A stretch of DNA of 64,000 bases from Cyanophora paradoxa CCMP329 (Eukaryota > Plantae > Glaucophyta): NCBI GenBank assembly GCA_004431415.1, contig QPMI01000054.1, positions 1-64,000 of the forward strand. The letters run 5' to 3'. Below the pieces are notes generated by a model. It searched no databases. It was not told where the DNA came from and was given only the letters and a program-made list of their open reading frames with translations. Positions 1-18,438 of the stretch are shown one piece after another; the stretch's first letter is position 1; the number at the start of each line of letters is the position of its first letter. A program made the position numbers and the translations under genes.

Positions 1-1
1 G

Positions 2-244
2 GCTCGGCAGGCGACGCTCTCTTCGATGGACCAGGTGCAGCCGATCTTAGAGGAGCTGGTGATTAAGTACTCGCGCTACGTGACCCTGGGGCCCGAGGCG
101 CGCCTGGGGATGGCCCTGGTGCAGACGGTGCTGGCGGTGCACGCGGCGAACGCGAACCCGGAGGTAATGAAGGAGGTGACGGAGGCGGCGGCCTCGACGG
201 CGGCGGAGCCCAGGGCGGTGGGCGGCAAGTTCAACGGCCTTTGA
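2..244 (+). CDS. 3' end of a DUF5767-like conserved NCLDV protein (frame open to the window edge)
   Basis: QPILEELVIKYSRYVTLGPEARLGMALVQTVLAVHAAN resembles the recalled EELxxKY...PExRL...H.xN pattern of this viral family. The frame is open from position 2. Confidence 0.5.
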   Translation, partial: ARQATLSSMDQVQPILEELVIKYSRYVTLGPEARLGMALVQTVLAVHAANANPEVMKEVTEAAASTAAEPRAVGGKFNGL

Positions 245-284
245 GTGTAAACGCGTGTAATCAATTGCACCAAAAATTCACAAT

Positions 285-1075
285 TTATTCGTCCGAGCTA
301 CTGCATGGGGCTGCGTACATAGACTCGGGGTTTAGGTAGGGCTCGAAATCGGCCTCGTTGTCGTAGGGCTTGAAGGCCAGCTCGGGGGCGCGCCCGGCGA
401 AGCGAAAGGCGCCGACCTTGCACTGCTGCACGGCGAGGAAGGACCACTTGAGGCCGAACTTGCCCTCGGGGATGGCGTAGGCGGTGTCGATTTTAATGAG
501 CGCCGCCACCAGGTCTCCGGTGCCGATGGTGGCGCGCTCGGTGATGAGGTAGTTGGACATGTCGACGACGGGCACGGTCTTGCGCTTGCCGCCATCGTCT
601 GGGTGCGGATGCGCATGTTGAGTACTTGTAGAAGGCCTGGCCCGACTCCTTGTCGACCTTGATGCGCACGCTGGGCGTCTGCAGCACCGAGATCTGATCC
701 TTGGAGAGGAGCGGCCGGGCGAGACCTTGAGCTTGGCCTGGTTCTGCTGCACGAACTCGCAGAATTTCGCGTCCAGGGCCTCCAGCAGCTTGAGGAACTC
801 GTCCGCGGCTGGGTTCGTCTGGCCGTCGACGGCGCTGAGATCGGTGAGGTCCAGCGTGTAAAATCCGCCGTTTTCTTCCATGACGAAGGCCTTCTTCTCG
901 TCGCTCCACGCCTTGCCTTGCTCTGTGTTGATGCACGGGTTGATCGTGACCATGGGCGGCGCGTACATCATGAGGCCCTGCAGGCCGTCGTACTTGGCCT
1001 TGATGCGGCCGGTGGCGTCGATCTCGAAGGCGAGCTTGGCGGGTCGATCTCGTTGGCGTTGCGGACGGTGGCCAT
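285..1075 (-). CDS. Viral ssDNA-binding protein (T7 gp2.5-like OB fold, NCLDV DUF2738-type), with ~3 frameshifts
   Basis: Reconstructed MATVRNANEID(P)AKLAFEIDATGRIKAKY...EFLKLLEALDAKFCEFVQQN...IGTGDLVAALIKIDTAYAIPEGKFGLKWSFLAVQ, ending in an acidic tail. Indels near 1045, 720 and 615. Confidence 0.7.
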
Positions 1076-1140
1076 GTTTGCGTTAGCTTAGAGTGTGCTT
1101 CAGCCTAGCGCTAGAAAATATTTAAGGGCGCCCCACCCGA

Positions 1141-1180
1141 CTTCAGCTGACCTCGGGTGAGCGCTCAGGTGATTCAGGTA
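1141..1180 (-). promoter_or_regulatory. Cluster of TCAGGTGA/TCAGCTGA (E-box-like) motifs upstream of the SSB gene
   Basis: cttcagctga cctcgggtga gcgctcaggt gattcaggta, followed toward the ATG by the AT-rich aaatatttaa. A similar cluster occurs at 1521-1566. Confidence 0.45.
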
Positions 1181-1249
1181 AAACACGTGTTCAATTCACC
1201 ATCAGATCCTCTACGACGGCTACACGAATCGAGCTAATCTTGAACCTGC

Positions 1250-1459
1250 CTACAATGCACTTCTCTCTCCACAGTACGATCTCGTTCTTGAGGGGAGCAG
1301 TTGAATCCAATCATACTCATCGCCCTTGCGGTGCTCCGACGAAATGTCGCGAAGGAGCTTGCAGAAGTAGAACGTGTTTCGGTCGAACTCATCGTCGTAT
1401 ATGACGTATGCGAAGATGCCGAAGGTGAGACAGCAGGTGAAGTACGTGGGGATGCACAT
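1250..1459 (-). CDS. Small hypothetical viral protein (69 aa, hydrophobic N-terminus)
   Basis: ATG-started ORF with GC3-biased codons, preceded by the same motif cluster as the SSB gene. Confidence 0.45.
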   Translation of the reverse strand: MCIPTYFTCCLTFGIFAYVIYDDEFDRNTFYFCKLLRDISSEHRKGDEYDWIQLLPSRTRSYCGERSAL

Positions 1460-1520
1460 TCTTGATTTCTCTTGCTTTGAAGTGTGAGGAGAGGGCGCGG
1501 CGGGGCTGCGGTTTTGAGGC

Positions 1521-1645
1521 CGTTCAGGTGAGGGTCAGGTGAGCGCTCAGCTGAGTTTCAGGTGAGGGCAACTTGAAAATTCGGCGTCATTACGTCCGCG
1601 TCATTTACGTCAGCGTCATTTACGTCACGGAGTTGGGACTCGGCC
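1521..1645. promoter_or_regulatory. Divergent regulatory region: TCAGGTGA cluster plus CGTCATTTACGTCA (CRE/ATF-like) repeats
   Basis: Four TCAG(G/C)TGA motifs at 1521-1566, then cgtcattacgtccgcgtcatttacgtcagcgtcatttacgtcacggagtt at 1585-1635, a partial copy of the 2444-2533 module. Confidence 0.55.
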
Positions 1646-1718
1646 TGGCCCCCGGCCCAGGCCTCGCCCGTAAAAAAGGACTTGGACTTGGCGCCATTTT
1701 CTAAAGCTCTGCTGTACC

Positions 1719-2357
1719 ATGGAGCCGCTATCTCCCAGCTAGTCTCTCAGGGCGCCAAGCTCGACAAGGCCCTGAACATCTACCTTCAGCTGATCGAGCT
1801 GGCCTGGCCCGAGCCAATGATAGCTCAGGCCTGCAAATCGCTCCACGTGGCGTTCGATGCGCCGTTCTCAGGTGACCCGGATCAGGTGACATCCTGGACC
1901 AAGGAGGAGATAAAGGCCGACTTCGAGGCGCTTTTCTCATTTATGAGCAAGAAGTATGCCGAAATCGAAGCAGCTAAGGCCTCAGCAGCCGAAGGCGGTG
2001 AAGCCCCAGCCGAAGGCCCTGCCGGCGACCAAGGCACCGAAGTTCAAGGCGCTGGGCCCCTTGCAGAGGGCGAAGGCCAAGGCGGACCTGCGACCGCGTA
2101 GGCCCAAGGACATAGCCAAGGAGGCAAGCGGCCACAGGCCGGACTGGCCGGCGCCGGCGCCCTACCGCTACCTCAAGCTGGACAAGAGCAACGATACCGG
2201 CTTCACCAGGAGGAGGTGGCCTGAGCCCCTCAGGTGGCTGGAGCCAAGGGAGATCAAGTCCGGAGGCGGTATCGAGCTAGCGCTAGCGCTGGGCGGCGGC
2301 GGCGGTGCAGACTTGGAGGAGCAGGCCCTGCTAGATACCATCAACTTGGGCAAGTAG
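1719..2357 (+). CDS. Hypothetical viral protein (~210 aa, basic K/P/A-rich C-terminal half), frameshifted
   Basis: Joins ORFs 1682-2101 and 1956-2357 through indels near 1724 and 1980, giving MEAAISQLVSQGAKLDKALNIY...PKAVKPQPKALPATKAPKFK...INLGK. Confidence 0.5.
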
Positions 2358-2363
2358 AGCTGT

Positions 2364-3027
2364 GATATCTAGCTAGCTAGCGCTTGCTTAATTAACTCAA
2401 CTGAAGTTACCTGACATTTACCTGAAGGGTTGCGGAGGTTACCGAAGGGTCGCGTCATTTACGTCAGCGTCATTTACGTCACGGAGTTTGCCGGCGACTC
2501 GGGACTCGGGCCCAACTTCTCCCGGTAAGTTCGAGACTTGGAAAAATAGGGTATCCCTATTACTTATCGTTATTATTATTACTATTATCGTTATTCACAT
2601 TGAATGAATGCTTAAATCTATAAAAGCTGTACCAGTATCGGTGGCTACTAGTACTAAGCTAGTAGTACTAAGTAGTACCAAGTAGTACTAAGTAGTACTA
2701 CGTAGTACTAGCGGTACTAGTAGCTACTGGTCGTGACGAACTTACCGGGAGAAGTTGGGCCCGAGTCCCGAGTCGCCGGCAAACTCCGTGACGTAAATGA
2801 CGCTGACGTAAATGACGCGACCCTTCAGGTTAATTAATTAAGCAAGCGCTAGCGCTAGCTAGCTAGATATCGATACCACCTAGCTAGTAGCACTAGGACA
2901 CTAGGACACTAGGACACCGGGGGTACCCCCGCCGAGTTCAAGTCTCGAACTTACCGGGAGAAGTTGGGCCCGAGTCCCGAGTCGCCGGCAAACTCCGTGA
3001 CGTAAATGACGCGGACGTAAATGACGC
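2364..3027. repeat. Inverted-repeat module (90-bp arms at 2444-2533 and 2737-2826, AT-rich spacer, third copy at 2939-3027); candidate origin or terminal-repeat junction
   Basis: gaagggtcgcgtcatttacgtcagcgtcatttacgtcacggagtttgccggcgactcgggactcgggcccaacttctcccggtaagttcg and its reverse complement. Outer imperfect arms lie at 2364-2396 and 2835-2871. Confidence 0.9.
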
Positions 3028-3096
3028 AAATCCCATTGGAGCTACGTTCGCACACTCCGGACGCCTCCCACAATTTTCCAAGGTACCCAGCAAGCA

Positions 3097-3383
3097 TGGA
3101 CTTCACCGATTGCGCAGGTATCAAGCAGGAGCCTGAGGACCTTCTCACCGCCGCCGCCTCGGCGCCCAAGCAGCGCCGCCGCCGCGGGCCCAAGTCCCTC
3201 TGCTCCGAGCCCGAGATCCTGGCGGCTCCGGCGCGCGGGCCGGAGACCGTGGACCTGACCCTGGAGGAGCCGGCGCGCGGCCCGCCGCGCCTTCTGATCC
3301 TTGCGGCGGCGGCGGCCGCGCTCTACTACGCCGCCCGGCGCCTGGGCCCGCAGCTCTCGGGCCTGGTCCGGAACCTTTTCTAA
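3097..3383 (+). CDS. Small viral protein with C-terminal hydrophobic segment
   Basis: MDFTDCAGIKQEPED...LLILAAAAAALYYAARRLG. GC3-rich and packed tightly against the next ORF. Confidence 0.55.
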
Positions 3384-3394
3384 GTCCCTCCTCA

Positions 3395-3736
3395 ATGGAG
3401 GCCCTGCTAGATCTCATGGCCTTTGCGCTGCCCATCTTCTTCCTGGTGGGCCTCAGCCGCATGGAGCGCGAGGCGCGCCAGCCCGAGCGCGTCGAGCGCG
3501 GCCTCACCCCCGCAGAGCAGCGCAACCTCACCGAGTGGGACCTGGCGCTCATGGCCGGCCGCATGCTCGACGGCAACCGGCTCGAGCCGGGCCACCGCCT
3601 CAAGCTAGAGGACGGCGGCACGGCCCTCTGGGACGGCGAGGCCTGGAAGCACGATTCGACGGGCGAGCCGATGAAGCTGCTCGCCTCCGGCAACAAGTAC
3701 TGGCGCGGCGACTCGATGGAGTTCCGGCGCCCGTGA
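3395..3736 (+). CDS. Small viral protein with N-terminal TM/signal anchor (113 aa)
   Basis: MEALLDLMAFALPIFFLVGLSRM..., with coding-like codon bias. Confidence 0.65.
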   Translation: MEALLDLMAFALPIFFLVGLSRMEREARQPERVERGLTPAEQRNLTEWDLALMAGRMLDGNRLEPGHRLKLEDGGTALWDGEAWKHDSTGEPMKLLASGNKYWRGDSMEFRRP

Positions 3737-3784
3737 TTGCTAGTGATTTTCTGGTCCCTCTTCTAACCCTTCTACCAGCAAAGA

Positions 3785-4069
3785 ATGCCCGACCCCTCGC
3801 CCGACCCCGCCGCAGGTGCCGAGAGCGCGGGCAGCTCGGACGAGTACTCCGAGCTCACGGATCCCGACCCCGACGAGCCCGGCGACGCCTTCGCGACGGA
3901 GAACGAGCGCTCCCTCATGCGCGTCTACGAGGCGCTGCGCGAGGCGATCTACTGGGAGGATCCCCGCCTGGGAACCCTGATGAACTTTGCAAAGTTCGCC
4001 GAGTTCATGTTCGCTATGACCGTGCCCTTCACCCGAGTCGTGCTCTGGGATAGGAACAGGAACTGGTAA
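3785..4069 (+). CDS. Small acidic hypothetical viral protein (94 aa)
   Basis: Acidic N-terminus followed by ENERSLMRVYEALREAIYWEDPRLGTLMNFAKFAEFMF. Coding-like codon bias. Confidence 0.6.
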   Translation: MPDPSPDPAAGAESAGSSDEYSELTDPDPDEPGDAFATENERSLMRVYEALREAIYWEDPRLGTLMNFAKFAEFMFAMTVPFTRVVLWDRNRNW

Positions 4070-4096
4070 AGGCATTGAATACAACAGTACAGAGCC

Positions 4097-4471
4097 CTAC
4101 GAGCTAGAGCTGCTATCGCCCGAGTCCAGGCGCGCCTTCTTGGCCTTGGAGCGGCGGAGGCGGGAGACGTACTGCAGGCGCAGGTTGCGCACTAGGAGCT
4201 CGCCGGCCGTGGTGCCCGGCAGCCCGGGAACCGAGTCCGTGGGCAGCAGCTGTCCCTCGCGTATCGCCTTGTACGTCTTGCGCTTGTTGAATGCAACCTT
4301 CTCCGTATCCTCCGCGACCGGGACTTCCAGCGCCAGCGTGCGCTTGGCCTTCTTGACGGAGACTGCGTTCGCACGCTCCAGCTTCACTCCGGGCTCCAGG
4401 GGGGTAGGGGCGACTGCGTTCGCCACCGGGTTCTCAGCGAAGGAAACACGGGGGGAAGAGCCGCCGCGCAT
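4097..4471 (-). CDS. Basic hypothetical viral protein (124 aa)
   Basis: ATG ORF with a K/R-rich C-terminus (SRLRRSKAKKARL, NLS-like). Confidence 0.55.
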   Translation of the reverse strand: MRGGSSPRVSFAENPVANAVAPTPLEPGVKLERANAVSVKKAKRTLALEVPVAEDTEKVAFNKRKTYKAIREGQLLPTDSVPGLPGTTAGELLVRNLRLQYVSRLRRSKAKKARLDSGDSSSSS

Positions 4472-4483
4472 GGTTCGCTCGCT

Positions 4484-4884
4484 TTACCTAGCCTTTAGAA
4501 AATAGTCGAGCTGGGCGCTCTGCAGGCGCGCGCCCTGGTAGGCGCCGCGCAGCTGCCACGCGAGCCAGATCGCAAGGAGCACCGCGGCGACGCCGGCGGC
4601 GATCTTGGCGTAGTGCCAGCCCTTCATCGCAAGCTCCGGCACGGCCGCAACCGCCTGCCCGACCTTCACGCCCGCGGCGCCCGTCCGATCGATTCCCGTC
4701 AGCGTGCTGCCGAGTGCGCCCGCGGCCACGTCGGCCCAGGAAGCTTGCCGTCGTTCTTTAGGATGAGCTCGTTGTTCTTGCGCTCGATCGTCGTGCTGAT
4801 CGCCGCGGCCAGGTTGAAGCTCGGCGGCGGCTGCGCGCTCTTCGGTCCGAAGACCTTGGTCAGCACGGCGTCCACCCAGCCCAT
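4484..4884 (-). CDS. Viral membrane protein (MG- start, C-terminal TM), one frameshift near 4733
   Basis: MGWVDAVLTKVFG...KNDGKLPG joined to DVAAGALGSTL...HYAKIAAGVAAVLLAIWLAWQLRG. Confidence 0.55.
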
Positions 4885-4910
4885 CTTTGACCTAGACTTC
4901 GAAAAACTAT

Positions 4911-5390
4911 CTAAATGACCAGGCCGCGCAGGTACCAGACCATCAGGAGCGAGCCGCCCAGCGCCACCAGCAGCGGCAGGTGCCCGTCCACGGCGCGCCG
5001 CATGCGGTTGTCGCACAGCTCCTGGCAGCTCAGCCGGTTGGCCTCGTCGAAGTAGGCGCTCACGGCGTAGGGGCGGTCGGCCGGCGGGTGCAGCCCCCGG
5101 CCCAGGCACGGGTAGGCCTCCGCCTGGCGCCGCGCGGCCAGCGCCGCCGTCGCCGCGTGCGCCGCCTCCCTCTGCCCCGGCGCGATCGCCACGAGGGGCA
5201 GCGCCCCCACGCTCCTGCCCTTGCCCGCCCCCTTGATCGTTTTCAGCGACGGCGGCGCGGGATCCGCCGCCTTCACCCTGGGCCCCTCCGCCGCCGCCCC
5301 GCCCTTAGCCCTCGCCGCCTCGCCGATCTTGCTGCATCGCGAATCCGATTTGAACACGGTGCACAGCAGCTTCTCTACCGCGCTCGACAT
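4911..5390 (-). CDS. Cys-containing viral protein with C-terminal TM anchor (159 aa)
   Basis: MSSAVEKLLC...LSCQELCDNRMRRAVDGHLPLLVALGGSLLMVWYLRGLVI. Confidence 0.6.
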   Translation of the reverse strand: MSSAVEKLLCTVFKSDSRCSKIGEAARAKGGAAAEGPRVKAADPAPPSLKTIKGAGKGRSVGALPLVAIAPGQREAAHAATAALAARRQAEAYPCLGRGLHPPADRPYAVSAYFDEANRLSCQELCDNRMRRAVDGHLPLLVALGGSLLMVWYLRGLVI

Positions 5391-5485
5391 CTTCGAACGT
5401 GTAACGAGAATGAAGAAAATTTAAAAGGGAACGCCAACGGACTCGGAACTCGGAAAAGGGGGAGGGGAGAATGAACTTTGAAAAG

Positions 5486-5674
5486 TTAGCGCCCGGCGGG
5501 GCGCATGCCGGCCGCCGCCTGCGAGGCGCCGCCGGGGGCGTAGAGGGACTTGGCGGCGTAGCCGAAGCCCACGCCTATGACCGCCGAGGCCGTGGGGGTG
5601 CCGCCGAGGAGCCAGGTGAGGGTCGCGGCCAGCGCTCCTAGCGAGTAATGGGCAGGATAAGCTTCGAAGGCCAT
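5486..5674 (-). CDS. Small two-helix hydrophobic protein (62 aa)
   Basis: YSLGALAATLTWLLGGTPTASAVIGVGFGYAAKSLY. Confidence 0.5.
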   Translation of the reverse strand: MAFEAYPAHYSLGALAATLTWLLGGTPTASAVIGVGFGYAAKSLYAPGGASQAAAGMRPAGR

Positions 5675-5722
5675 CGCGGGACCGAATTGAGGGAGGGTTG
5701 AGAAAAAATACCGCCTCGGGCC

Positions 5723-8700
5723 TCAGTGGTGCAGGTGCCGGAAGCGCGCGTTGTCCTCGGCCTCCTCGCGCGCCGCCTGCTCCTCCGCCGCGTCGATCTC
5801 CGCCCGCGAGGCCTCCCGCGCCGCGGCCGACGCGTAGTCCTTGAGCACGGGCACGCGCCGGTAGCTGTAGCCGAGGCCCTTCGCCAGCCCCGCCGACTCC
5901 GCCTCGAACGCCCGCCAGCGCTCCGAGGCCTCCGCCCCGGCGATCTGGCCGGCGCGGAAGCCGGAGTCCAGCTCGGCGCGGAAGGCGATGGTGGCCTGCA
6001 GGCGCTGGGCCCAGAGGGCCTGGCGCCGCTCCTCCGCCTCGCGCGCCTGGCGCGCCGCCAGCGCCCGCCGCTCGGCCTCCTGCTGGGCCCCGAAGCCCTG
6101 GATCGCGGTGAGGACGGCGCCGGGGCCGGGGAGGGGGCTGGGGCCGTCGGCGCTCGCGGAGGAGGCCGAGCTCCCGTAGCCGCTCGGGCCCGCGCCGCCG
6201 TTCGTCGGGGTACCCTGCCCTTGGATCAGGAGGGGGGCGGGGGGAGGGGGGTACGGGAGGGAAGGCGGGGGTACGCGGGGCCGGACCTGGCGCGGCAGCA
6301 TCTCGTCGATGCGCTGCTGGCCGGGGCGCTGCTGGGGGGCCGTGGCGGGGGGCTGGGGCGGGAGGAAGGCCGGCGCCGAGTTGCGGGTGCGCTTGCCCTT
6401 GCCCTTGGTGTGGGGCTTGACGAGGAAGGGCCCGACGTCGGGCGCCGGGTCCTTGAACTGGGCGACGGGGATCGCGATCGCCTCCAGCGCCGGCTGGCTC
6501 TCGCCGAGGGAGAGCGGGGCCTTGGGGACGATGCCGCGGATGTAGGTCTGCCAGACGCCGCCGAGCTTGTAGGAGTAGGGGCGGCACCAGGAGCCGAAGC
6601 CGGCGAGGGTCTCGTCCAGCCGGCCGTTCTCGATGTCGGCGCCGACGGCGGCGGAGGTGTCGGGGCCCTCCGTGCGCGCGATGTACTCGACGATGCCCGC
6701 GACGCTCGTCATGTAGCCCTCCGTGTTCGGGGCGGCGACGTAGGTGGTGGGGTCGACGGCGCAGTGGGTGATGATGAAGCGGGTGAGGGGACAGGAGGCC
6801 GTCTCCTGCCAGAAGCCGAGGCGCTGCGCCCGCAGCCACGCCGGCTCGAAGGCCTGGATGCAGGAGGCCTTGCCGTCGGAGAGCGCGTGGATGATCTTCC
6901 ACGCGAAGGTGAAGGCCGCGACCATGAGCGCCGGCAGCTCGTTCTCGCGGATGTCGGAGTGGAGGTAGGTGCGCTTCTTGGCCGGCTTGTGGTCGAGGGG
7001 GATCAGGACGACGCGGGCGAAGAACTCGAGCATGCGGTTCTCGAGCTGCGCCGGGGCAAGTGAGAAAGGGCGCCGGGGAAGGGGAAGGGGGGCAGGGGAA
7101 CGGGCGCACCTGCGGGAAGCTGTTGCAGACGATGACAAGCACCTTGCGCGTAGCCTTGGTGCGCACATCGTCGCCGCGGACGTTCTTGAAGTTGCGGGAG
7201 TAGGCGTCGCCGGAGCGCATCTTGAGCTCCTCCTCCGAGCAGGCCTTAGGGTCGAGGCCCTCCGCCATCACCATGCAGATCGCCTCCTCGCCGCCGTGCT
7301 CCGAGAAGGCCGAGCCCTTGGAGGGGCGGTAGACGCAGACGCGGCCCGGCGGCAGGCACTCCGTCATGATCTGCGTCACCATCGACTTGCCTGTGCCCGA
7401 CTGGCCCTTGATGATGCCGCAGTACTGCAGCATGGCGCCCTCGGACGGCGGCTCGATCTCCGCGCGCGGCTCCCGGTCGAAGACGGGCTTGTCGCAGAAG
7501 TTCCACGGCCCGACGAGGTTGAAGGCGTAGAGGACGGCCGCCGCGTAGCCGAACTCGTCGGCCGTCACGTAGCCGTTGTCCGCCAGGTGCTTGACGACGT
7601 TGGGCATGAAGGGGTGCAGCATGCCGTACACGGTGGGCCAGTCGCAGGTCTCGGTCGCCTCCTCGATGCCCGCGGGCAGGCGCCCCTGGATGTAGCAGGT
7701 GTTCATGTAGCCCGCGTACCGCTCCCGTGCCTCCTCGTGCGTCATGACGAGGACGCAGGCGCTGCCCGTGCTGTCCTGCGGCGCCCGCACCACGAAATCT
7801 GCGCAAGGGGCGTCGGCGGGGGTACGGGGCGGGGCGCAGGGGTACGGGCGGCGCACGCGTGTCGCAGGCGAAGGCGAAGCCGGGGATGACGGGCATCTCG
7901 GGGCAGACGTCCTCGAGCTGGAGGGACTCCTCCACGAACGTGCGCGTCCGCCCCGAGAGCACCTCCTTCGAGAAGGTGAACTCGAAGGAGCCGGGGTTGG
8001 ACTCGTAGGTCTTGTGGAAGGTCATCGCCAGCAGCTGGATGACCTCCTTCATCGTCCCGCGCCCGGCGTGCCTGTTCGCGCTGACCTTGTCGTACACGAA
8101 GAGGTTCGGGAGCTCGACGTAGAAGGTGGGCGGGGAGTTCGGGCCGTAGGGTCTCTGGCGCACGATCCGCTGCGCCGGCAAAAGGGGGTTAGCGGGGTTC
8201 GAACGCGGGGAGGGGGGCGCACCGGCCGAAGGCGGCTCGGGCCCAGCGCCTTAAGCAGCTGGGCCACGGCCGCCTCCGGCCTCTAAGGGGGCGGGGCGCG
8301 CAGCTAAGGGGGGCGGGGCGCACGTTGTTCTTGACGAAGAGGCGGAGCGCATCCTGAATGGCCGCCTCCTTCTTGGACTTGTTGTCCTTGCTGTACGTTG
8401 TCACGTCGTCGTACTTGGACATGTCGATCTCGGGCGCCTCGCGCGGCTGCGCCGCCAGCTCCGCCCGCGCCAGCTCCAGCCTGGTGGCGCGCGGGGGCTC
8501 GCCGTCGCTCTCCGACGCCTGGCCGTCGTCGTGGTCCGCCTCCGCCTCCGCCCGCTGATCGCGCAGCAGCTGCCGCTCGCGCTCGCGCCGCTGCTGGGCC
8601 CGGCGGGAGAGGCGGCCGGCGCGGGGGGCCGGAGGGGGCGGAGGGGGCATGTGGCCGAGGGAGGAGGCGGGCGTGGCGACGGGCGTGCCCCGCGGCGGCG

Positions 8701-11201
8701 AGGGGATGGGGCGGGCGAGGGGGGTACCCTGGACGGAGGGCGGCGGGCGCTGCGAGGGCTGCGAGGGGCGGAAGGGACTGAAGGCCGAGGGGTTGCCGCT
8801 CGGGCGCCAGGAGACGTCGGAGGCGGCGGGGCTGGCGGGGGGCACGGGGGCGGGCGGGCGGCGGGGGGAGACGAGGGGCGGCCTGGGGCCGGCGTCGCCG
8901 GGCTCGTCGTCCGAGAACTCCTCGATGGGCGGCGGCGGGGCGCCGTCGAGGGAGGGGGAGGGCGGGAGGGGGTAGAACTCGTCGACGGGGGGCTCGGGCT
9001 CGAAGGTGTCCCCCGCCCCCGCCTCCACCGTCGCCGCCAGCTCCGCATCGGGCTCGCCCTCGCGCTCGCGCTCGCGCTCCAGCTCCATCGCGTACTCCTC
9101 CGCCACCTCCAGCTCGCGCGAGGCCTTCGCGTCCGCCGCCGCCGCCAGCGCGGCCTCCTCCTCCATCTCGCGCTCGGCCTCCAGCTCCTCCTCTGAGGGC
9201 AGGGTCATTCCTTTGCGCCTCTGGAACGCCCTAGGCTCAGAAATTAGGGGCGGGGAGGGCGCACCGGCCGCCTTGGGGGCCGCCGCCTCCATCTCCTCGC
9301 CGAGATCGCGCCGCGCCGCCGGGGCACCCGCCTCCTCCTCCTCGAACCGCAGGTCGATGTAGGCGGCCTTGCCCTTGCCCTTGCCCTTCGCCTGGGCCTG
9401 GGCCTGGGCCACGCGCATGGCGCGCGCGAGGCCCTCCGCCGTGATCATGCTGCCGCCGGCCCGGGCGCCCGAGGCGGAGGCCGTCGCCTCGCCGATCGCC
9501 GCCTGGAAGGCCGCGGCCATCGCCTGGCCGGCGCGCGGCAGGCTCCGCGCCCGCTCCAGCTCCTCCTCCGTGAAGTCCAGCGCCCGGGCCGCGGCGGCGG
9601 CCTCGGCCTCGCGCTCCGCCTCGGAATCCGAGTCGGAATCCGAGGACTCCGCGGCCGCGAGCATGGGGCGGGGGCGGGAGGCGGCGGCGGCGGCGGCGGC
9701 GGCCGCCTTGTCGAAGACGGGGACGAAGAAGGTGAGGGCGAGGGTGCGCCGCGGCACCACGTACTTCACGGCGCCGTGGATCATGGGCCGCCCGTGCGAG
9801 TCCGGCATCGAGCACCGGCGGATGACCTGCGAGGGGGTTTAAATGGCATCTAAATAGTCTAAATAGCATCTAAATAGCATCCAAATAGAAACGGCTGGAA
9901 ACGGCGCACCTGCACGCGGTCGCCGATGGTGACGCCGGGCACCTCGAACTCAGGAACCAGGTCGAAGGCGCAGATGCCCTGGCGCCCGTGGCGGTCCCGG
10001 CACGTCCGGCAGGCCGCCTCCAGCACGATGCGGATGGCGTAGGCGTCGGTGAGGACGCCGGTGTCCGGCCGCTCGCCCCAGACCGCCGAGCTCTCGTGGC
10101 GCGTGATGAACGCGCGGCTGTTCCGCATGATGCAGCGCGCCTCGACGCCCATGATGCCCTTCGCCAGCCTCTGCGGGCCGGCGGGGGTCGGCGGGGAGGG
10201 GCGGCCGCGGCTGCACGGGCGGCCGGGGGCGCACCTCGGGCGTGTAGGCCGGGTCCGAGCTGAGCACCAGCAGCCAGAGCAGGTGCGGGGCCGCCTCCGC
10301 CATGCGGTTGAAGTAGAACTCCTCCGGGCCCGCCAGCAGGCCAATCGTGCGCCACTCGCCCTTGGCGATGTGCCGGGGCACGGCGCCCATGAGCAGCCGC
10401 AGGCGCTGCGCCGCGAACAGCCGGCGGGCGTCGGCATCGCGCCCGGGCTTCGGCTTGCTCGGCGTGTCGAAGTTCTCCTCCGTCATGTTCAGCGCCGCGT
10501 GCATCGCCCGCACGTCCGCGTCCTGCGAGCGCGGCGGCGCCTCAGCCGCTGCGAGCCGAGCGCGCGAGGGAGAAAGAGGCAGCGAGCACCTCCGCGAGCC
10601 GCAGCCGCGACAGGACGGAGTCGATGGAGAACTGCACCGACGGGCCGGGGGCACCCTCGGCGTTCAAAGTCCGCGCCGCGGCCAGCTTGCGCTTGCGCTC
10701 GGCCAGCTCGGTCTTGCGCAGCACATCCTTGCTGTTCGGGCTGAACTGCATGCCATCCTCCAGCGCACGCGCCTGCGCCTCCTTCGCCTGGTCGCTGATA
10801 CCGGCCTCGAACACCGTCCAATCGACGCCGAAGCTGTCGCCGATGCAGAGAACGTCGTACAGCGTGTTCTTCGCCAGCTTAGCCGGGATCTCCGGAGGGA
10901 GCGCGAGCCGAGACATGCTGCTGCCGCCGATGCTGCCGCCGGTGCTGCGCGCGCTCTGCTGGGAGTGCTGCGCGCGCTGCGAAGGTTCTGGCGCCAAGGT
11001 TCCAGCCGATTTGAACGAGCGGCCTGCATTGCATCGCCGGACTGGGCAGTCAAAAAAAGCGAGAAACCGACCGGGGTTCGAGCCCAAGGGGGGTACGCAT
11101 TTTGAAGGGGGGGAGAAGCGGGCTTCAAGTCTGAGTCTTCGCGAGTTGGGAAGGGAACAAGCCAGCGGGGGTACGACGTTGAACGGAATCCGTTGAGACA
11201 T
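5723..11201 (-). CDS. Large multi-exon protein (~1,550 aa) with an SF3 (D5-like) helicase domain; start uncertain (10916-11201)
   Basis: Walker A GIIKGQSGTGKS (~7385-7415), Walker B ICMVMAE, motif C VLVIVCN, Arg-finger-like EFFARVVLI. Frame-restoring or in-frame GT-AG introns at 10523-10599, 10171-10234, 9827-9909, 8283-8323, 8170-8222, 7799-7856, 7046-7109 and 6215-6286. Confidence 0.8.
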
Positions 11202-11221
11202 CGCGGGCAGTAACACTCGCG

Positions 11222-13699
11222 ATGCAGGCGGCGACCTTCCGCTCGTGCGCGAAGCAGCAGCAGCCCGGCGAGCAGGACAGCATAGCCCGCGATCTCGGCA
11301 GCCTGTCGGCGGAGGAGGCGCTCAACGCGATGACCTGCGATAGCGTGTTCAACTCGGCCGGCGTGCCGCGCTTCGAGCCGTTCGGCGGGCTGAAGAAGAT
11401 CCAGAACACGGACGGCCACCCGAAGCGCTTGAAGACCAAGGGCCAGTTCACGCCGGTGAATAAGTTCAACGAGGTTCGCGGTTTCGCCCGCACCGCTTCG
11501 GCCCCGGCTCACATGCCCCGGCTCGCGTGCCCCGCGCGCAGATCGTGCCTTACAGCATTCACGAGCTGCCGGAGCATGTGAAGGCGAAGTACGGCTTCAC
11601 GCACGGCGATGTGGCGCTGTTGCTGATGTCCGACAATGCGGCGGCGGGCTGCTTCAACAGCATCGCGCTCCATCGCGATTTCCATCCGCGCGCGATCTTC
11701 TCCGGCACTCCGGAGCAGAAGGAGTTCCTCGCGGACCTCAAATCCGGCAGCGGCGGCGCCCACGGGGTGAGGGCCCTTCCCTGCGCTCGCGTGCCCGCGC
11801 TTGCTCACGCCCGGGCCGCCGCAGCTCTTGATCGCGCGGGATCAGTGCCTGGCGTCGGTGACGGAGAAGGAGAAGGCCAGCCCGTCCGGCCTCGGCGTTC
11901 GGTGCGATTACGTCATCGTCACCAAGCGCATCAACCCGACGTACGCCAAGAAGTACGACCTCAACTTCGTCTACGTGAAGGAGGGGCCGCCGGCCTCGCA
12001 GTACACCGTCACCGTCCAGGCCGGCATCTGCGCCGGCGAGACCATCCAAGGCGCGTACCACGGCGTCGGCACGCTCCCGTCCGGCGGCTTCTTCGACGTC
12101 GTTGATCACATGTTCCTCTCCTGCGCCGATGACATTTACGTGCGCGAGAGCCCGCCCTTTCCCCTTTCCCCTGCCCCTGCGCGCGCTAAGGTCGCGTCCG
12201 CAGGTCGGAGAGAACCCGAGCGCGGAGAGCCCGCTGGGCTACGCGTACTGGCTGGTCAGCGTGCAGAAGGTGCTCTCCTGCGCGGCCCTTCTGAAGTACG
12301 CCAGCGTCTGCGACTCCGGCATGCGGCCCCAGCTCCAGCTTCTCGTGGATCAGGGCCGGAGCGACGAGACCCGCCAGCGCCACCGCGATCTCGCGCGGAC
12401 GGCCGTGCTGAAGCTGGAGGAGGTTCTGCGCGAGGGCCACCCAAACGGGCCGGCCCGCGCCCGTGAGATCCTCTCGGCGGCCATCTCCGTGATCGTCGGC
12501 GAGCTCTCGCACACGGTCCGCCGCCGCCCCGCTTAGCCCGCCTCTCCTCCCTGACCCCGGGCCCTCGGAGCGCAGGAGGAGTCGGACGTTCTCACGGCGC
12601 GGGCGGACGAGTTCCAGCGCCAGGCGGAGAAGATCAAGTGCTGGTACGAGAAGGTGAAGAAGGCGGAGGAGACGGACCTGCGCGACTGGGGCAGCAAGAG
12701 CGGCGACGCCGAATTCGACCGCGACAAGCTCAAGCGCGTCTTCTTCTGGATGCGCATCTGCGCCAAGCTGGAGGCGCTGATGGACGAGTGGCACATCGAG
12801 GGCGTCCGTCTGGCGAAGGCGATGATCGCCATGGAGTGGGGCCACGGCCACCCGGCGCGCAAGGAGTGCAGCATGCTGGCCAAGGAGATCGGCCGCCGGG
12901 GCCGCTACATCAAGGAGGTGGCCTACGGCATCGAATGTGCGTCCGCCCCGCCCTTGGCCTGCGCCCCCGCCCTTGGCCTGCGCCCCGCGCTCTCCCCGCT
13001 CACCCCCTCTCCCGCAGTTACCATCCCGCTCGTCCAATTCTTCCAGCGCGAGTTTGTGCTGATCCAGGCCTCCATCATCAAGATCGGGTCGCTCTCCGCC
13101 AAGGAGGTGGACGAGGCAAGGGACGAGGGCCAGGCGGAGGCGGAGGCGCGCTGGGACGATGCGGCGTTCAGCGCCGTCTGGGGCGTCGGGACAACGCGCT
13201 CTCGCCCCCCGCCCCGTTCGGCTTCAGCGGGCGGCCCGCGCTGGCGTTCGACGAGCACGGCCTCCCCGAGCTGGCGGAGGCGGACGCCGTCGGCTTCAAC
13301 TGGGCGACGTTCGAGGCCCGCATCGACGAGAAGGCGAAGGAGGTGCAGATGCGGCTGCTGGAGGAGGGCCTCGTCCCGGCGCCGGTGCCCGCGCCCTTCC
13401 CCCTTCCTCTCCTCCTCGGCCCCTCTCACCGCCTCCTCCAGCCCCCGGCGTCCTCGGCTCCGGCGCCCTTGGCTCCGGCCCTCTGCCCCACCTACGGAGA
13501 GAGGTGCGCCCACGGCGCCGATTGCGCCCTCAACGGCTCCCACCTCCTGCCCGCCAAGAAGGCCCGCCTCGGCCTCTTCTCACCCCACCCTCTCAGCCCG
13601 GTGAGTGACTCTGAATCGGAGGGCTCGGAGGCCTATAGCACGCCCCGCGACCCCGACGCCCCGCCCCACAAGGCCGGCGCCTTCGGCTTCTGTGAGTGA
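11222..13699 (+). CDS. Multi-exon orphan protein, divergent from the helicase gene; may extend to ~14202
   Basis: Coding-like exons joined by GT-AG introns at 11474-11541, 11767-11824, 12140-12203, 12516-12575 and 12937-13017. Probable indel near 13185. No family recognised. Confidence 0.65.
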
Positions 13700-14256
13700 C
13701 GCCCCCGCGCAGGCCCTGCCGACGCCGCCCGTCGCCAACCGCACCGTCTTCGTCCAGGTGAGTGCCAGGGCTGCCGCGAGTGGCGGCTCGAGAACTTCTC
13801 GGCTCAGGTCCCCGCCACGCAGCAGGCCGGCGCGATCCCGGCCTCGCCGCCCGTGACCGTCGACGTCGAGGGCGGTATGTTCGAGATGGAGCTGGAGCCG
13901 GCGCCCTCGCAGGCCCTCGCCACCCAGGGCTCGGCCCCGGGCTCGCCGCCGCCGTCCCAGCCCTCCCTCCCGCTGGTGCACGCCAACTCCAACATCTTCG
14001 AGGGCTGCTGAGGGCCCTGAAACGGTGCGCGCAGGCCCGTCCCGCCCTCCCAGAGCAAGTGGTCCACAACGCCATAGTGGACGCCATGTGGGATAACAGG
14101 GGCCGCCTCCCCCACCCCTTCCGCTACGTCTCTATGGCCCTCCGCGGCCTCGCCTTCCCGCCCCCTGCACCGAGCAGCTCAACCAAATCCTGCGCGGTCT
14201 GATTCATTACAGACTCGCCTACCCGGCCTGGGCCTGAGCTACACCAAGCTACGGTG

Positions 14257-14392
14257 AGTCCGACCAAGCCCTGTCCCGGGTCCCGGAAAATTTATATTAA
14301 GATTCCAAAGACCTGGGACAGAAGTAGTCTGACCAAGAGACGTGTCCGGACCCTCCCAATAATCATATAGAGTATTGGAAAGGTCCGGACAC
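14257..14392. terminator. Twin 51-nt hairpins between convergent genes (putative 3'-end signal or protein-binding site)
   Basis: ctgtcccgggtc...gacctgggacag (14271-14321) and gtgtccggacc...ggtccggacac (14342-14392). Each is preceded by agtc(c/t)gaccaag. Confidence 0.5.
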
Positions 14393-15056
14393 TAGAGGAG
14401 GGCGTACGACTTAAACTCGCGCAGCGCCGCCTGCTCCTCGCTGAGGTTCTCTGACTTCATTCGATCGCTGTAGGGCTCGGGCGGCGTGCCCTCCTTGACG
14501 TGCATCCAAAATAGATGTAAGCACTTCCTCATGAGCTTGATGTACCTCTCGTCCCGTCTGACGTACCACGTTTGCACGCGCAGAGGAGTGAAGCAAAAAA
14601 GTTCGGCCCACTCGCGGCCCGTTATGTCCAGCAGGCCCTGGAGCTGGGGCATGTAATAAGTTGGGACCTTTTCGTAGAGTTCTTGTTTGTAGGGGCATTT
14701 TATTTCAAGTATACGATCGCTTCCAATCAGCCCGTCCGGGCTGCCGCCAGGAAGGGCAGTTCCTTATGTTCGTGCAATCCAGTATGTTGCACGTCCACGT
14801 TGTTGTTCGACGTTTTGTAGAGAGAGACCGCGAAGGGCTCATAGTCATGCCCGTAGGTTAGCGCAGGGTTGTCGAAGTTGTTTTCCTCCGCTATGCCGCT
14901 TAGCTCCGCCCAGAGGCGGGCCCTGGATTTCCAGGGATTTATGCCGCACGCAGCCGCAAAGTTCGAGGCAGTTAGCTTTTCGCGGCGCGCCGCGTGCCAC
15001 GCCGCGCTCCCCTGTTGCAAGTTCTCGCAAGTCTCGCAATCTGTATCGGTATGCAT
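14392..15056 (-). CDS. YqaJ-like viral recombinase / lambda-type exonuclease, one frameshift near 14742
   Basis: QQGSAAWHAARREKLTASNF...YGHDYEPFA...PFLAA(S)PDGLIGSDRILEIKCPY...YYMPQLQGLLDIT. All hallmark YqaJ motifs are present once one base is restored. Confidence 0.92.
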
Positions 15057-15107
15057 GACTTGGTCTCGCAGTAGCGTTTAGAATTTCTTGATGTGTGCAA
15101 TTGCAAA

Positions 15108-15804
15108 TGTCGGATGCAGAGGAAGCGCCCAAGGACGTGATCGCACAGTTCATAGATCAGGTCAAGGACCTTAGACGCTGGGTGGTAGAGCAGGCCTCGC
15201 GACCGAATCGACAGCGCCAACCCTGGCCGGTGCTGGAGCTGGCCCGGGCAGGGTGGCTGGACAGCCATTACAACTATGGCGGGCCTCATACGTCCGGAGC
15301 CACGACGAGGGCAGGATTATCGACGAGTTCAAGCGCATCTGGTTCGCCCTGGGCTCCAAGCTCAGCATACTCTCGACCCTCCCGGACCACATTCGCATGC
15401 AAATCCTCGAGCGGTACGCGAAGGCAAGGGACTCGGAATGGGACGACGTAAATTTGCGCGACCTCTCGCGCTTGCGCTCGGCTGTGACGGCGTACGTCAC
15501 GAACTATGAGTATCACACCAAAAAGCCCCAATTCGAAGTTGAGCCGATTCCGGCAAATCTGGTACCCCTGGGCTGGGAAGAGTACCCCGAGTACTCGTGG
15601 AACAGGGGCCTCAACCCCCGGCGCCAGGCCCTGCCAGCCCCGCCCGCCCCACCGATAAACGCCCCCGCCCCACGTGACGTCGGGCGAGACATACGCGAAT
15701 GGGAGGAGTGGAGCAACGACCCGAAGAACTGGCTACCCGAGGAGGCGGAGATGCGCAAGCGCGCGAGGCTGATGCCCGGCTACAAGTACCCCGACCGCGA
15801 GTAG
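15108..15804 (+). CDS. Hypothetical viral protein (~230 aa), frameshifted near 15280
   Basis: Joins ORFs 15095-15451 (MSDAEEAPKDVIAQFIDQVKDL...) and 15253-15804 (SHDEGRIIDEFKRIWFALG...). Confidence 0.5.
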
Positions 15805-15841
15805 GGGGTACAGGTAGAAATTCTCAGCGAGCCGCGAGCGA

Positions 15842-16556
15842 ATGTCGTACGGCGATCAGGAAGCATGGTTCAAGCTACACCGCCTCTTTCCTGATAAATT
15901 CGGCAATGCGCGCTACCCCCTCAACCTAATGACGCGAGTCAACCGGCGGACGAGGGACTTCAAAATCGAAGTGTTCTCTTCCTCTCCCGAGAGCGGCCGC
16001 TCCGCGGACAACGACGCTATGGCATGGCTGTACGGCTTTGTGCAGCCTCGGGTTGGTACTAGCCCGGCCACAGTCGAAATAGAGAGCTACTACAACGATT
16101 ACGGGCCGCAGGGGGGTACGGGACGCCCGAGCAGAATAACGCGATGCGGGGGTAGGCAAAATCATGCTGCGGGCGGCTGTGAACGCGCTGCAACGCTCCG
16201 GGCTCATTAGCTCGTCGGACCCGGGCCAGCACCCGTTGGAGCTCAGGGCCCTCCCAGACGCAGTGGATTACTACCAAAGGGAATTGAACCTGCGTGAGAG
16301 ACAGGTCGACTATAGGCCGTCCCTAATACCCATGGAGGGTACAGTGCAGAACATCATCGACAACACGTACAACGTGGCCGTTCGCTGGCGCAAAGCGGCG
16401 GCGGATCTCGTAAAGGGCAACTACAGGGACCTCGCAAACGAAGACAACCCCGTGGGGGAGTACATGGAGCTGGCAAGCGGGAGCATCGTACCCCGCCGGA
16501 GGCCCCCATGGCCCCACCCCGACCTCGAGTGGGGACCGTCGCACTTCGGCCAGTGA
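15842..16556 (+). CDS. GNAT-family acetyltransferase (two 1-nt deletions in G runs at ~16113 and ~16150)
   Basis: The restored sequence ...NNAMRGVGKIMLRAAVNAL...LELRALPDAVDYYQRELNL fits the GNAT acetyl-CoA-binding motif A (RGxG) and the C-terminal A..(F/Y)Y helix. Confidence 0.65.
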
Positions 16557-16769
16557 GGGGGTACAGCATTCAGTTAGAGTCTGAGCATAGTTAGAGGCCG
16601 GAGGCCCCGAGGGGTACGTCGGACGTGTTAGTCCCCGTGCCTCCCCGAATGCAATATAACAATGCAACCTCCGCAACGCGTGACTCATCAACCTCCGAGG
16701 GTTAACAATACATTGACAGCGAAGGGGCAAGCTCGAGAGCTCAACGCTTCACAAAGGCCCACATATATA

Positions 16770-16830
16770 GCTAGTAGTAGACTACTACTAGACTAGTACT
16801 AGTCTACTAGTAGTACTAGTCTAGTACTAG
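16770..16830. repeat. TAGTAC/CTAG low-complexity palindromic tract
   Basis: ctagtagtagactactactagactagtactagtctactagtagtactagtctagtactag. A similar tract lies at 2645-2730. Confidence 0.75.
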
Positions 16831-17652
16831 CACTGCCGGCGCCGCAGTGCGGCAGTGCAGCGGCACTTAGTGACTGCACTGGCAGCCCAGTGGCATGGCA
16901 GGCTCTTGACATGTGGCCACTGGCCACCGGGCCGATGAATCCCAAATTCCCATGCAAATTGATGCAATTCGTTTGAAAGAGTTTTTATTTGGGGTACAGC
17001 ATTGTTGACTTCCGGCGTCTTCCGCAAGCTATAGAGGCGGGGGCCCCGGGCTCGATCGCGAGCCTCCAGTGCCCTCCACGCTCGAGCCCGAATTGCCAGC
17101 TCGAGCCGAGCTCGAGCCGGGAGTCCGGGACCCCTCGAGCCGAAAGCCGGCCGCGGCTAGCACTCGAGCGGGTGGAGGAAGGGGGTACGTAGTGCCAGTG
17201 CCACTGTGCCAGTCTTGTATAACATCGATATATATACTAGTAACTTCGTAATATTCGGCAATTCGACGACAAACGGCACCCTCATGCATATGTGATCACA
17301 AAGCCCCACCCAGCTCGAGCCGGCGCCGGCTGATCATATATATATAATTCATGAGCTGCAGCTGTGCCCCTACGTACTAGGTCTTCGACTCGCCCCCGCC
17401 CCCGCTCGTCTCAGGAGGTGCAAGGTGGGGTCTAAAGTAGGGACGCTGGCAGAGTACAAAAAATATATAATTATATATAACTTAGTAAGTAATACTCAGC
17501 GAGCATATATACAACTAAGTATAATGCTAGGCGTAGGCGGCTAGGCCTGGGCCTGCGCGCAGCGCCGCCCGGCGGCCGCCCACAGTGCCTCCGCCCCGCC
17601 CGGCGAACTGCACCGCCGCCTGCACCTCCGCCCCGCGGGCCGGTGCCAGGAG

Positions 17653-17830
17653 AGCTGCGCCGCCGCCTGCCGAGCCGCGCCGCCGCCTGCCGAGCCGCGC
17701 CGCCGCCTGCCGAGCCGCGCCGCCGCCTGCAGAGCCGCGCCGCCGCCTGCCGAGCCGCGCCGCCGGCCGGCTGAGCCGCGCCGCCGGCCGGCCGATCATG
17801 AGCTGAGCTGCCACGCGCGCGTCGCGCCTC
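17653..17830 (+). repeat. 20-bp minisatellite (GCCGCCTGCCGAGCCGCGCC, ~6-7 units) plus unique tail
   Basis: Tandem units are directly visible. Positions 17781-17830 are identical to 29041-29090. Confidence 0.9.
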
Positions 17831-17831
17831 A

Positions 17832-18437: not shown

Positions 18438-18438
18438 C

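Follow-up and report, generated by a model that had tools for sequence, protein, structure and literature searches.

The first 16.8 kb of the window (the whole stretch of DNA analysed, 64,000 nucleotides of contig QPMI01000054.1) carry the following features; the host is Cyanophora paradoxa, from which all of the EukProt accessions also come.

1..244, + strand: 3' end of a DUF5767 gene (PF19071; gamadvirus family profile, E 1.7e-14), by position a putative Mriya_48 envelope protein
298..1075, − strand: ssDNA-binding protein (SSB) with T7 gp2.5 fold, gamadvirus PEV_26 family (profile, structure match, short-read contigs)
1250..1459, − strand: small ORF, variable among copies (ORF list, copy comparison)
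1719..2101, + strand: small ORF with WWWTTC motif, its start out of frame in the assembly
2353..3027, unstranded: non-coding palindrome (inverted arms) with TGACGT motifs and an AT-rich TAGTAC core, a candidate origin or enhancer
3096..3736, + strand: a pair of short ORFs, 3096-3383 and 3395-3736, containing hydrophobic segments (hydropathy)
3785..4069, + strand: small ORF, by position putatively PEV_34, the gamadvirus family adjoining RuvC (profile E 9e-4)
4097..5674, − strand: four short ORFs, of which three contain hydrophobic segments by hydropathy (4097-4471, 4484-4883, 4911-5390, 5486-5674)
4714..4931, + strand: two GT-AG introns, 4714-4812 and 4859-4931, in a transcript running antisense to small membrane ORFs (RNA-type contigs)
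5723..10916, − strand: 1543-codon spliced gene with seven GT-AG introns (six of them in RNA-type contigs) and a C-terminal P-loop domain with SF3-helicase-like motifs
11222..14011, + strand: divergent spliced gene with at least five introns, function unassigned by homology; 3' end uncertain, frameshift at 13187
14392..15056, − strand: YqaJ / PD-(D/E)XK exonuclease in two frames (PF09588, E 3.8e-18 and 5.7e-6, one per frame)
15107..16556, + strand: two accessory ORFs (15107-15804, 15842-16556), each in two frames, the second GNAT-like by motif only
16770..16831, unstranded: hairpin rich in TAGTAC, where the multicopy sequence ends on the right; the low-depth junction contig starts at 16745

This block makes up the right-hand 17 kb of a repeated virus-derived element, present on dozens of C. 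paradoxa contigs. In particular, at least 35 contigs carry the block: the SSB has named copies on 35, helicase matches at 67-100% identity (24/24 hits) fall on 21, the SSB and DUF5767 gene numbers are consecutive on 17, and the helicase is 3-10 gene numbers from the SSB or DUF5767 gene on nine. Contig depth in one DNA run (X3) was 1464-3675 within the element vs 79 at the junction contig, and in another (X14) 338-1013 vs 13; contig depth is not copy number, as the tool itself warns, and genes were not ranked by depth. The initial annotation had raised the concerns that the proteins might group with cellular orthologues and that the junction might be chimeric. No cellular orthologue was found for the SSB, the DUF5767 protein or the helicase exon, and the right junction is spanned by low-depth short-read contigs in two independent DNA studies, the same contig (16745-17403/4) having 0 mismatches in both DNA runs, so that it is not chimeric. 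That the assembler misjoined host sequence to a culture-borne virus, free or episomal, is accordingly very improbable; the element's depth, tens of times that of the flank, could include a contribution from an episomal pool, but the junction contig is identical in the two studies and copies on many contigs diverge down to 67% identity.

To the right of the element lie, in order, ~1 kb of flank, a 20-nt satellite, an 11-kb LINE (RVT_1, E 2e-20) and then host genes, the first at ~30.7 kb, including a nucleoside transporter, SPC12 and DnaJ. The element had been placed next to ordinary host genes; such genes do lie to its right, but they do not abut it. (Note that one junction was observed, and that the link from it over the satellite to the host genes rests on the assembly.) The terminal hairpin folds at -18.1 kcal/mol, whereas 100 mononucleotide-shuffled sequences gave -4.2 +/- 1.9, and the right end matches no other sequence in the window, the left end lying outside it.

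The SSB gene is intact. Its five single-base deletions are assembly errors, an extra base being present at 306, 588, 621, 707 and 1040 in the runs covering these sites; indeed, every frameshift that we could check proved to be an assembly error, including those at 4738 and 13187, and the one-base break in the YqaJ gene is likely another. Pseudogene decay of the SSB and of the plus-strand spliced gene was considered and rejected, the frames being restored by short-read contigs. The predicted SSB structure (AlphaFold pLDDT 84.7) has T7 gp2.5 as its top PDB match (Foldseek E 7.8e-8), and the protein matches the gamadvirus SSB profile, which bears out the gp2.5-like SSB initially proposed; the fold matches Megaviricetes proteins as well. 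A search of 1.84 billion proteins with the SSB returned 38 hits, namely seven close copies, two repeat-protein artefacts and 29 others, and all of the latter (29/29) score on the gamadvirus SSB profile (33-434 bits). The element thus has the PEV_26 SSB, a feature of the Gamadviridae, the Pleurochrysis endemic viruses of the class Mriyaviricetes (PMC11253617; 10.1101/2022.07.28.501842); in Table S1 of PMC11253617, gamadviruses and Phaglo_G are distinguished by this type of SSB, which the Yaraviridae rows considered lack. In a quick tree, built with no outgroup and subject to a long-branch warning, the Cyanophora clade forms a long branch outside the core gamadviruses.

Other genes of the block point in the same direction. 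The DUF5767-like ORF of the initial annotation has full-length copies elsewhere, one of which matches PF19071 (E 2.7e-13), and these match the gamadvirus DUF5767 family (E about 1e-30), through which the element would have the Mriya_48 envelope protein, a Mriyaviricetes feature; the name was assigned by comparing gene order with Table 1 of PMC11253617. In another copy, a fused model matches weakly (E 0.08, PEV_20-like) the gene preceding DUF5767 in gamadviruses. YqaJ exonuclease also holds as originally read, with PF09588 in both frames, and provides the PD-(D/E)XK nuclease typical of Mriyaviricetes, although phage RecE-like profiles score similarly (70 + 53 bits vs 75 + 63 bits on the gamadvirus profile). 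The PEV_34-like profile gave its sole hit among 1012 window segments (E 9e-4) at 3785..4069.

The claim of host-style spliced replication genes is substantiated by 10 introns that were observed in RNA-type contigs within the two large divergent genes: 6/7 in the helicase gene (X16, X18, X19) and four in the plus-strand gene (X15 and X17). (Note that no run is recorded as RNA; X15-X19 were treated as RNA because GT-AG introns are skipped there and kept in DNA runs.) The helicase gene model agrees with EukProt tig00000204_g17674.t1 at 1519/1519 residues. Its product has a Walker A motif, GQSGTGKS (AAA_22 E 0.003, below cut-off), and by eye B, B' and C motifs that we take to be SF3-like. Mriyaviricetes have a large protein with a C-terminal SF3/SF2 helicase; a fit in architecture and motifs is seen here, without significant family, structure or profile match: family, profile and structure-database searches gave no D5 family, PDB or phage match, and the fold prediction, made with a shallow alignment from a gene copy whose model is partly wrong, reached pLDDT 30. 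Nor did the protein match the helicase segments of gamadvirus loci, the SF3_hel2 of Gamadviridae was not found, and profile-profile comparison with the gamadvirus helicase gave a probability of 2% (E 0.023). The SF3, D5-like helicase first proposed stays an assignment at the level of motifs. The plus-strand spliced gene had no match in family searches, and neither it nor most of the small ORFs had any in our other searches. The RNA-type contigs cover intronless genes too, and an expression ranking is not derivable from them.

A spliced antisense RNA runs across the membrane-protein genes. Its joint at 4859-4931 is present in X15-X19 (three studies) and that at 4714-4812 in X18 and X19; both are absent among the joints listed for DNA runs X3, X14 and X9. 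As to the membrane ORFs themselves, put at about six in the initial annotation, 19-residue hydropathy reaches at least 1.7 in four of the 11 proteins examined and 1.3-1.4 in two more. The GNAT reading likewise stays at the level of motifs, Pfam, PHROG and NCBIfam having given no GNAT hit and a GxG-type motif being seen by eye only; some copies lack parts of the accessory ORFs (joint 15111/15804, reduced depth). The palindrome has perfect 90-nt inverted arms (2444-2533 / 2737-2826) with a third arm copy at 2939-3027, and an opposite-strand joint, 2352/2887, occurs in two DNA runs.

The intronless genes of the element have in common a WWWTTC motif that is also enriched in gamadviruses. Within the window it lies upstream of 11/13 intronless ORFs, 0/2 spliced genes and 9/319 other ATGs, the pattern having been derived from these same ORFs. 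In an independent test on gamadvirus loci, WWWTTC was present at 391/836 starts vs 1993/29,864 ATGs, and de novo k-mer ranking in those loci puts this motif at the top.

These genes make it likely that the block is one end of the genome of a small DNA virus, a relative of mriyaviruses, which sequence comparison suggests are its closest group. We consider the element to be, quite probably, a temperate provirus; the virus would be a mriyavirus that branches deeply and is related to Gamadviridae. Profiles for MCP, ATPase, VLTF2, VLTF3, RuvC and mCP match nothing in the window, and the element continues past its left end. No HUH gene was recognised in the window, with no match against loci holding presumed HUH genes, and Pfam gave no DNA or RNA polymerase in the 16.8 kb (Mriyaviricetes genomes are 35-45 kb). 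One could instead see a capsid-less mobile element that arose from a mriyavirus, kept some viral genes, acquired a new spliced helicase module and spread like a transposon. With this would agree the lack of virion core genes in the window, a helicase unrelated to those of gamadviruses, a reshuffled gene order, many near-identical copies and a right end formed by a CTAG-terminated hairpin, which we take to be Helitron-like. We regard it as unlikely, given that in many copies both the DUF5767 gene, of envelope type, and several membrane ORFs have stayed intact and that an MCP tree of Mriyaviricetes in a preprint includes glaucophyte insertions, perhaps of another element.

As initially stated, neither pPolB nor an rve integrase is seen: Pfam found none in the window, nor a tyrosine integrase or a PLV capsid module. 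Polinton-like viruses of C. paradoxa (PMC12220804), likewise multicopy integrated DNA viruses of the same host, are typed by the PLV capsid module, pPolB and rve, whereas the genes of the element match mriyavirus families. It is improbable that the element is a Polinton-like virus from the groups related to mriyaviruses (Zoravirus/VC102, VC134, VC218) or part of a larger Megaviricetes insertion. Mriya48 and integrases do occur in these PLV groups, according to section 6 of 10.64898/2026.06.19.733378, Table S6 of PMC12220804 has 156 PLV-type elements for Glaucocystophyceae, giant-virus-like insertions in C. paradoxa have been reported (10.1101/2025.04.15.648976), and the SSB fold has Megaviricetes matches; yet the SSB sequence finds gamadvirus-family proteins alone, the nuclease, PEV_34-like ORF and promoter motif agree with gamadviruses, and pPolB, integrase and any giant-virus core gene are absent from the 17 kb. 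A mirusvirus was also considered, with no supporting match.

A provirus related to Gamadviridae would have much in common with these viruses and Phaglo_G: the gp2.5-type SSB (PEV_26), PD-(D/E)XK nuclease, DUF5767/Mriya_48, PEV_34-like ORF, WWWTTC, an intron-bearing large helicase gene, and no polymerase or integrase seen. Phaglo_G likewise comes from a host assembly and has short tandem repeats on its flanks. In contrast to both, the element resides in a glaucophyte in dozens of integrated copies, has a helicase without detectable homology to theirs, departs from the conserved gamadvirus gene order, and has an extra spliced gene, a palindromic region and antisense RNA; its SSB, on a long branch, is only ~30% identical. 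Pattern scans of IMG/VR and JGI metagenomes with the SSB, DUF5767, helicase and palindrome motif found no close relative, and a nuclease scan of the same gave four loci, the one examined being a phage, and no close relative either; scans of this kind detect close relatives only. The element had been called an undescribed small NCLDV relative integrated in an alga; an integrated Nucleocytoviricota relative is supported, with mriyaviruses closest, but Mriyaviricetes-related regions in a Glaucocystophyceae assembly were already noted in a preprint that views nucleocytoviricot insertions as mainly accidental (10.1101/2025.04.19.649669, section 10, Fig. 5f). Those regions are probably the same element family in the same genome; the passages concerned offer no copy number, splicing, promoter or expression.

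On the provirus reading, host polymerase II and the spliceosome would express the two intron-containing genes in the nucleus from one divergent promoter, and the WWWTTC promoter of the intronless genes would be read with viral late factors (VLTF2/3) in a productive cycle; an early/late split is not supported, because the RNA-type contigs also cover intronless genes and cannot rank expression. The DNA may be copied by host polymerase, aided by the viral helicase, SSB and exonuclease, with an HUH nickase starting at a hairpin origin. Because no integrase is in view, we propose that HUH strand transfer, or recombination at the hairpin end assisted by the exonuclease and SSB, might bring copies into the chromosomes. 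We predict that the capsid, ATPase, VLTF and HUH genes lie upstream of the window. A bolder proposal, which we put forward tentatively as possible though doubtful, is that mriyaviruses are temperate nuclear viruses with intron-bearing replication genes across lineages, and that C. paradoxa holds dozens of intact, transcribed, integrase-less and particle-inducible proviruses of a new family-level lineage, kept latent with spliced antisense RNA over virion genes.

Mriyaviruses have been proposed as the closest living relatives of the giant-virus ancestor, with a nuclear rolling-circle cycle that is predicted only (PMC11253617). In a 2026 preprint, 10.64898/2026.08.29.747986, the lack of introns in other nucleus-dependent nucleocytoviruses is called 'enigmatic' and persistent infection is suggested to favour intron gain, an idea on which spliced replication genes in an integrated, transcribed relative have a direct bearing, as do the introns predicted for environmental gamadviruses. 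The latent Punuivirus provirus of Chlamydomonas (10.64898/2026.10.09.758095) also has two gene classes, intron-bearing and host-like vs intronless with a viral promoter motif, but it is a giant virus with 506 genes, its own RNA polymerase and TIRs, whereas the element is small and multicopy. Spliceosomal introns likewise mark nuclear reproduction in the intron-rich mirusviruses (PMC12768974); these belong to another realm, and no mirusvirus gene was recognised in the element. Integrase-less integration, latency and induction become testable, since C. paradoxa is a model alga in culture for which genome, RNA and methylation data exist.

Environmental relatives may have similar introns. We fetched 80 IMG/VR loci with SSB relatives (a Pfam check was made of one, L028), among which an ATPase is present in 73, VLTF3 in 72, MCP in 43 and a nuclease in 76; six are of the same length as gamadvirus representatives listed in Table S1 of PMC11253617. 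Core genes used as controls (SSB, ATPase, VLTF3, RuvC, Mriya_48) are mostly uninterrupted ORFs in gamadvirus loci. In-frame length variants of MCP (5/44) and mCP (8/48) fit GT-AG excision at scattered positions; the excision test is by itself insufficient to prove introns, and these variants were not counted. At the gamadvirus helicase breaks, where the defining paper reports 'frameshifts' (PMC11253617), 6/6 tested give GT-AG introns that are best or within 3 points of best among 1058-2090 excisions, which suggests that the breaks are GT-AG introns; the predicted junctions include 20700/20576 and 20291/20142 in locus L093 and 19270/19211 in locus L087. Together with the spliced genes of C. paradoxa, such introns would mean that the published view of a degrading helicase gene needs correcting, and they suggest that these viruses, the smallest relatives of the giant viruses, make use of the host nucleus.

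The first 16.8 kb of the window consist of short, densely packed intronless ORFs that surround two large genes, which diverge from 10916-11222; Pfam matches within this virus-derived block are YqaJ, DUF5767 and a weak P-loop. The SSB gene (298-1075, minus strand) carries five frameshifts, each of a single base and each restored by short-read contigs, as are the single-base frameshifts at 4738 and 13187; the genes checked in this way are intact. Both large genes are spliced. In particular, six of the seven introns modelled in the helicase gene (5723-10916, minus strand) are skipped in RNA-type contigs from three studies, as are four introns of the plus-strand gene (11222-14011) in contigs from two studies, and no such joints were found among those listed for the DNA runs. 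Every one of the 1519 residues of tig00000204_g17674.t1 is present in the spliced helicase model, which is 24 residues longer. Introns in the element are mostly 58-83 nt long (one is of 154), mostly start with GTGCG and end with CAG, and resemble candidate host introns in the window. Two further plus-strand introns, at 4714-4931, belong to an RNA antisense to membrane ORFs. After splicing, one frame of this RNA runs for ~270 codons without a stop but shows no methionine within the stretch examined, and so the RNA either does not code for protein or begins with an exon that was not seen. We also observed that RNA-type contigs X16-X19 lack 79 bases (5639-5717) in which a small ORF directly past the helicase stop has its promoter and its start; this gap does not figure among the joints listed for the DNA runs, and thus the copy with the highest expression may carry a deletion.

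A search with one helicase exon returned 24 proteins among 901 candidates, all of them EukProt models (21 contigs, 67-100% identity) from a gene set whose accessions are those of Cyanophora paradoxa. SSB copies lie on at least 35 contigs by name, SSB and DUF5767 gene numbers are consecutive on 17 contigs, and the helicase is 3-10 gene numbers from SSB or DUF5767 on 9 contigs (~60 away on one); these neighbouring gene numbers indicate that the block moves as one unit. In two short-read DNA runs (X3 and X14), contigs within the element had roughly 20-75 times the depth of the contig that spans the junction, contig depth not being an exact copy number, and the junction-spanning contig (16745-17404) had no mismatch to the window. 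The depth contrast and the mismatch-free junction contig support true integration at this site together with tens of copies. One ENA contig of 3422 bases, listed for an SSB at 88% and also for a DUF5767 protein at 76%, suggests a wild relative. The element is real, multicopy, transcribed and provirus-like, and we consider it quite probable that it represents a deep mriyavirus lineage.

The fold of the SSB resembles T7 gp2.5 and nucleocytovirus SSBs. Its 29 distant sequence relatives (23-36% identity) led to 80 IMG/VR loci (the best 80 of 81) with the common order MCP, RuvC, nuclease, SSB, ATPase, VLTF3, DUF5767. When 32 profiles from these loci were compared with the element, four gave convincing matches, namely SSB, nuclease, DUF5767 and a small RuvC neighbour; by gene order against Table 1 of PMC11253617, DUF5767 would be Mriya_48 and the RuvC neighbour PEV_34. 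In a midpoint-rooted SSB tree of 57 rows, built by a quick method after proteins <200 residues, loci >70% identical and two artefacts had been removed, the Cyanophora clade sits on a long branch outside the core gamadviruses, and neither a search of the fetched loci nor profile comparison detected orthology between its helicase and that of gamadviruses. We therefore regard the element as working like a gamadvirus relative but do not place it in Gamadviridae. Two environmental gamadvirus-like contigs, L073 and L081, have a rearranged gene order; in L073 a helicase of 1038 aa (5809-8922) adjoins SSB.

Some gamadvirus helicase genes are said to contain frameshifts (PMC11253617 and its preprint); 'intron', 'splic' and 'promoter' do not occur in the mBio text of PMC11253617. 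We fetched 19 loci around VLTF2, analysed 18, and used the unbroken helicase ORF of L097 as reference for six breaks in four other loci, picked from the blast table. Each of the six resolves to a GT-AG intron (60-488 nt) whose excision has the top score, or one within 3 points of it, among the 1058-2090 that are possible; candidates of the GT-AG type number only 1-6 per break, and a near-identical intron position is common to two viruses.

Predicted helicase introns in environmental gamadvirus loci
L093, 20700-20576 and 20291-20142, minus strand, two GT-AG introns
L096, 20632-20145, minus strand, one GT-AG intron
L087, 19270-19211 and 19069-18999, minus strand, two GT-AG introns
L092, 20079-19973, minus strand, one GT-AG intron

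These six breaks, published as helicase 'frameshifts', are predicted, from sequence rather than RNA, to be spliceosomal introns. The helicase genes of L102 and L103 are likewise in pieces. Among 76 loci, 10 (L009, L010, L012, L023, L028, L047, L074, L078, L079 and L082) have in their nuclease gene an in-frame GT-AG insertion of 69-75 nt at residue 47-50, whose canonical donors share one codon position; it is likely a conserved intron, and in many other loci this gene is split in two ORFs. Some environmental gamadvirus contigs may be endogenous themselves.

The motif WWWTTC[TCG] lies 23-42 nt 5' of the ATG in 11 of 13 intronless ORFs, neither spliced gene and 9 of 319 other ATGs, a count that is circular because the pattern was drawn from the same ORFs. 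In gamadvirus loci, which offer a test independent of the element, it was found at 391 of 836 core-gene starts versus 1993 of 29,864 ATGs, counts not independent of one another because the loci are related; top de novo 6-mers there include TTCTGA, TTTCTA and ATTTCT. The motif may represent a late promoter. A similar split of genes into two classes is described for punuivirus (10.64898/2026.10.09.758095).

A non-coding palindrome of ~530 nt at 2353-2887 has TAGTAC at its core as well as repeats of TGACGT; the right end of the element is marked by a hairpin with TAGTAC. At or after 2649 in the element, 16 of 19 TAGTAC hits fall in the palindrome and right-end hairpin tracts plus two further hits; the other 47 kb of the window hold 6. 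The palindrome and hairpin could serve as origin and integration end. In DNA contigs, 2352 and 2887 are joined on opposite strands, which points to other copies that are inverted here or whose perfect arms are longer.

Publications already hint at the element's presence in C. paradoxa. Several sources report Mriyaviricetes-related regions in a Glaucocystophyceae assembly (10.1101/2025.04.19.649669, sections 10 and 11), methylated giant-virus-like insertions in C. paradoxa (10.1101/2025.04.15.648976), PLVs listed for C. paradoxa / Glaucocystophyceae (PMC12220804), Phaglo_G (10.1101/2022.07.28.501842) and the absence of integration genes from mriyaviruses (10.64898/2026.06.19.733378). PMC10120064 leaves Cyanophora unnamed in its main text and assumes endogenous viruses to be intron-free. 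The intron passages checked in three of seven papers that mention both Mriyaviricetes and introns, among them 10.64898/2026.08.29.747986, report no introns in mriyaviruses. In the literature searched, part of it available as excerpts, we found no account of the splicing, shared promoter, antisense RNA or reading of 'frameshifts' as introns; bioRxiv supplements or figures may already show the element.

The element is followed on its right by ~1 kb of flanking sequence and a 20-nt satellite, then by an APE-RT LINE and finally by ordinary spliced host genes. The LINE (17800-29100; 11 kb, apparently intact) lies inside the satellite, comprises endonuclease, RT and, by eye, an RNase H-like C-terminus, and has the same ~45-nt sequence plus satellite at both ends (17785-17830 and 29045-29090); it is possibly a satellite-targeting retrotransposon. 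Within the element, the tract separating the plus-strand gene from the nuclease (14270-14400) holds short repeats, varies among copies and includes an imperfect inverted repeat at 14342-14392.
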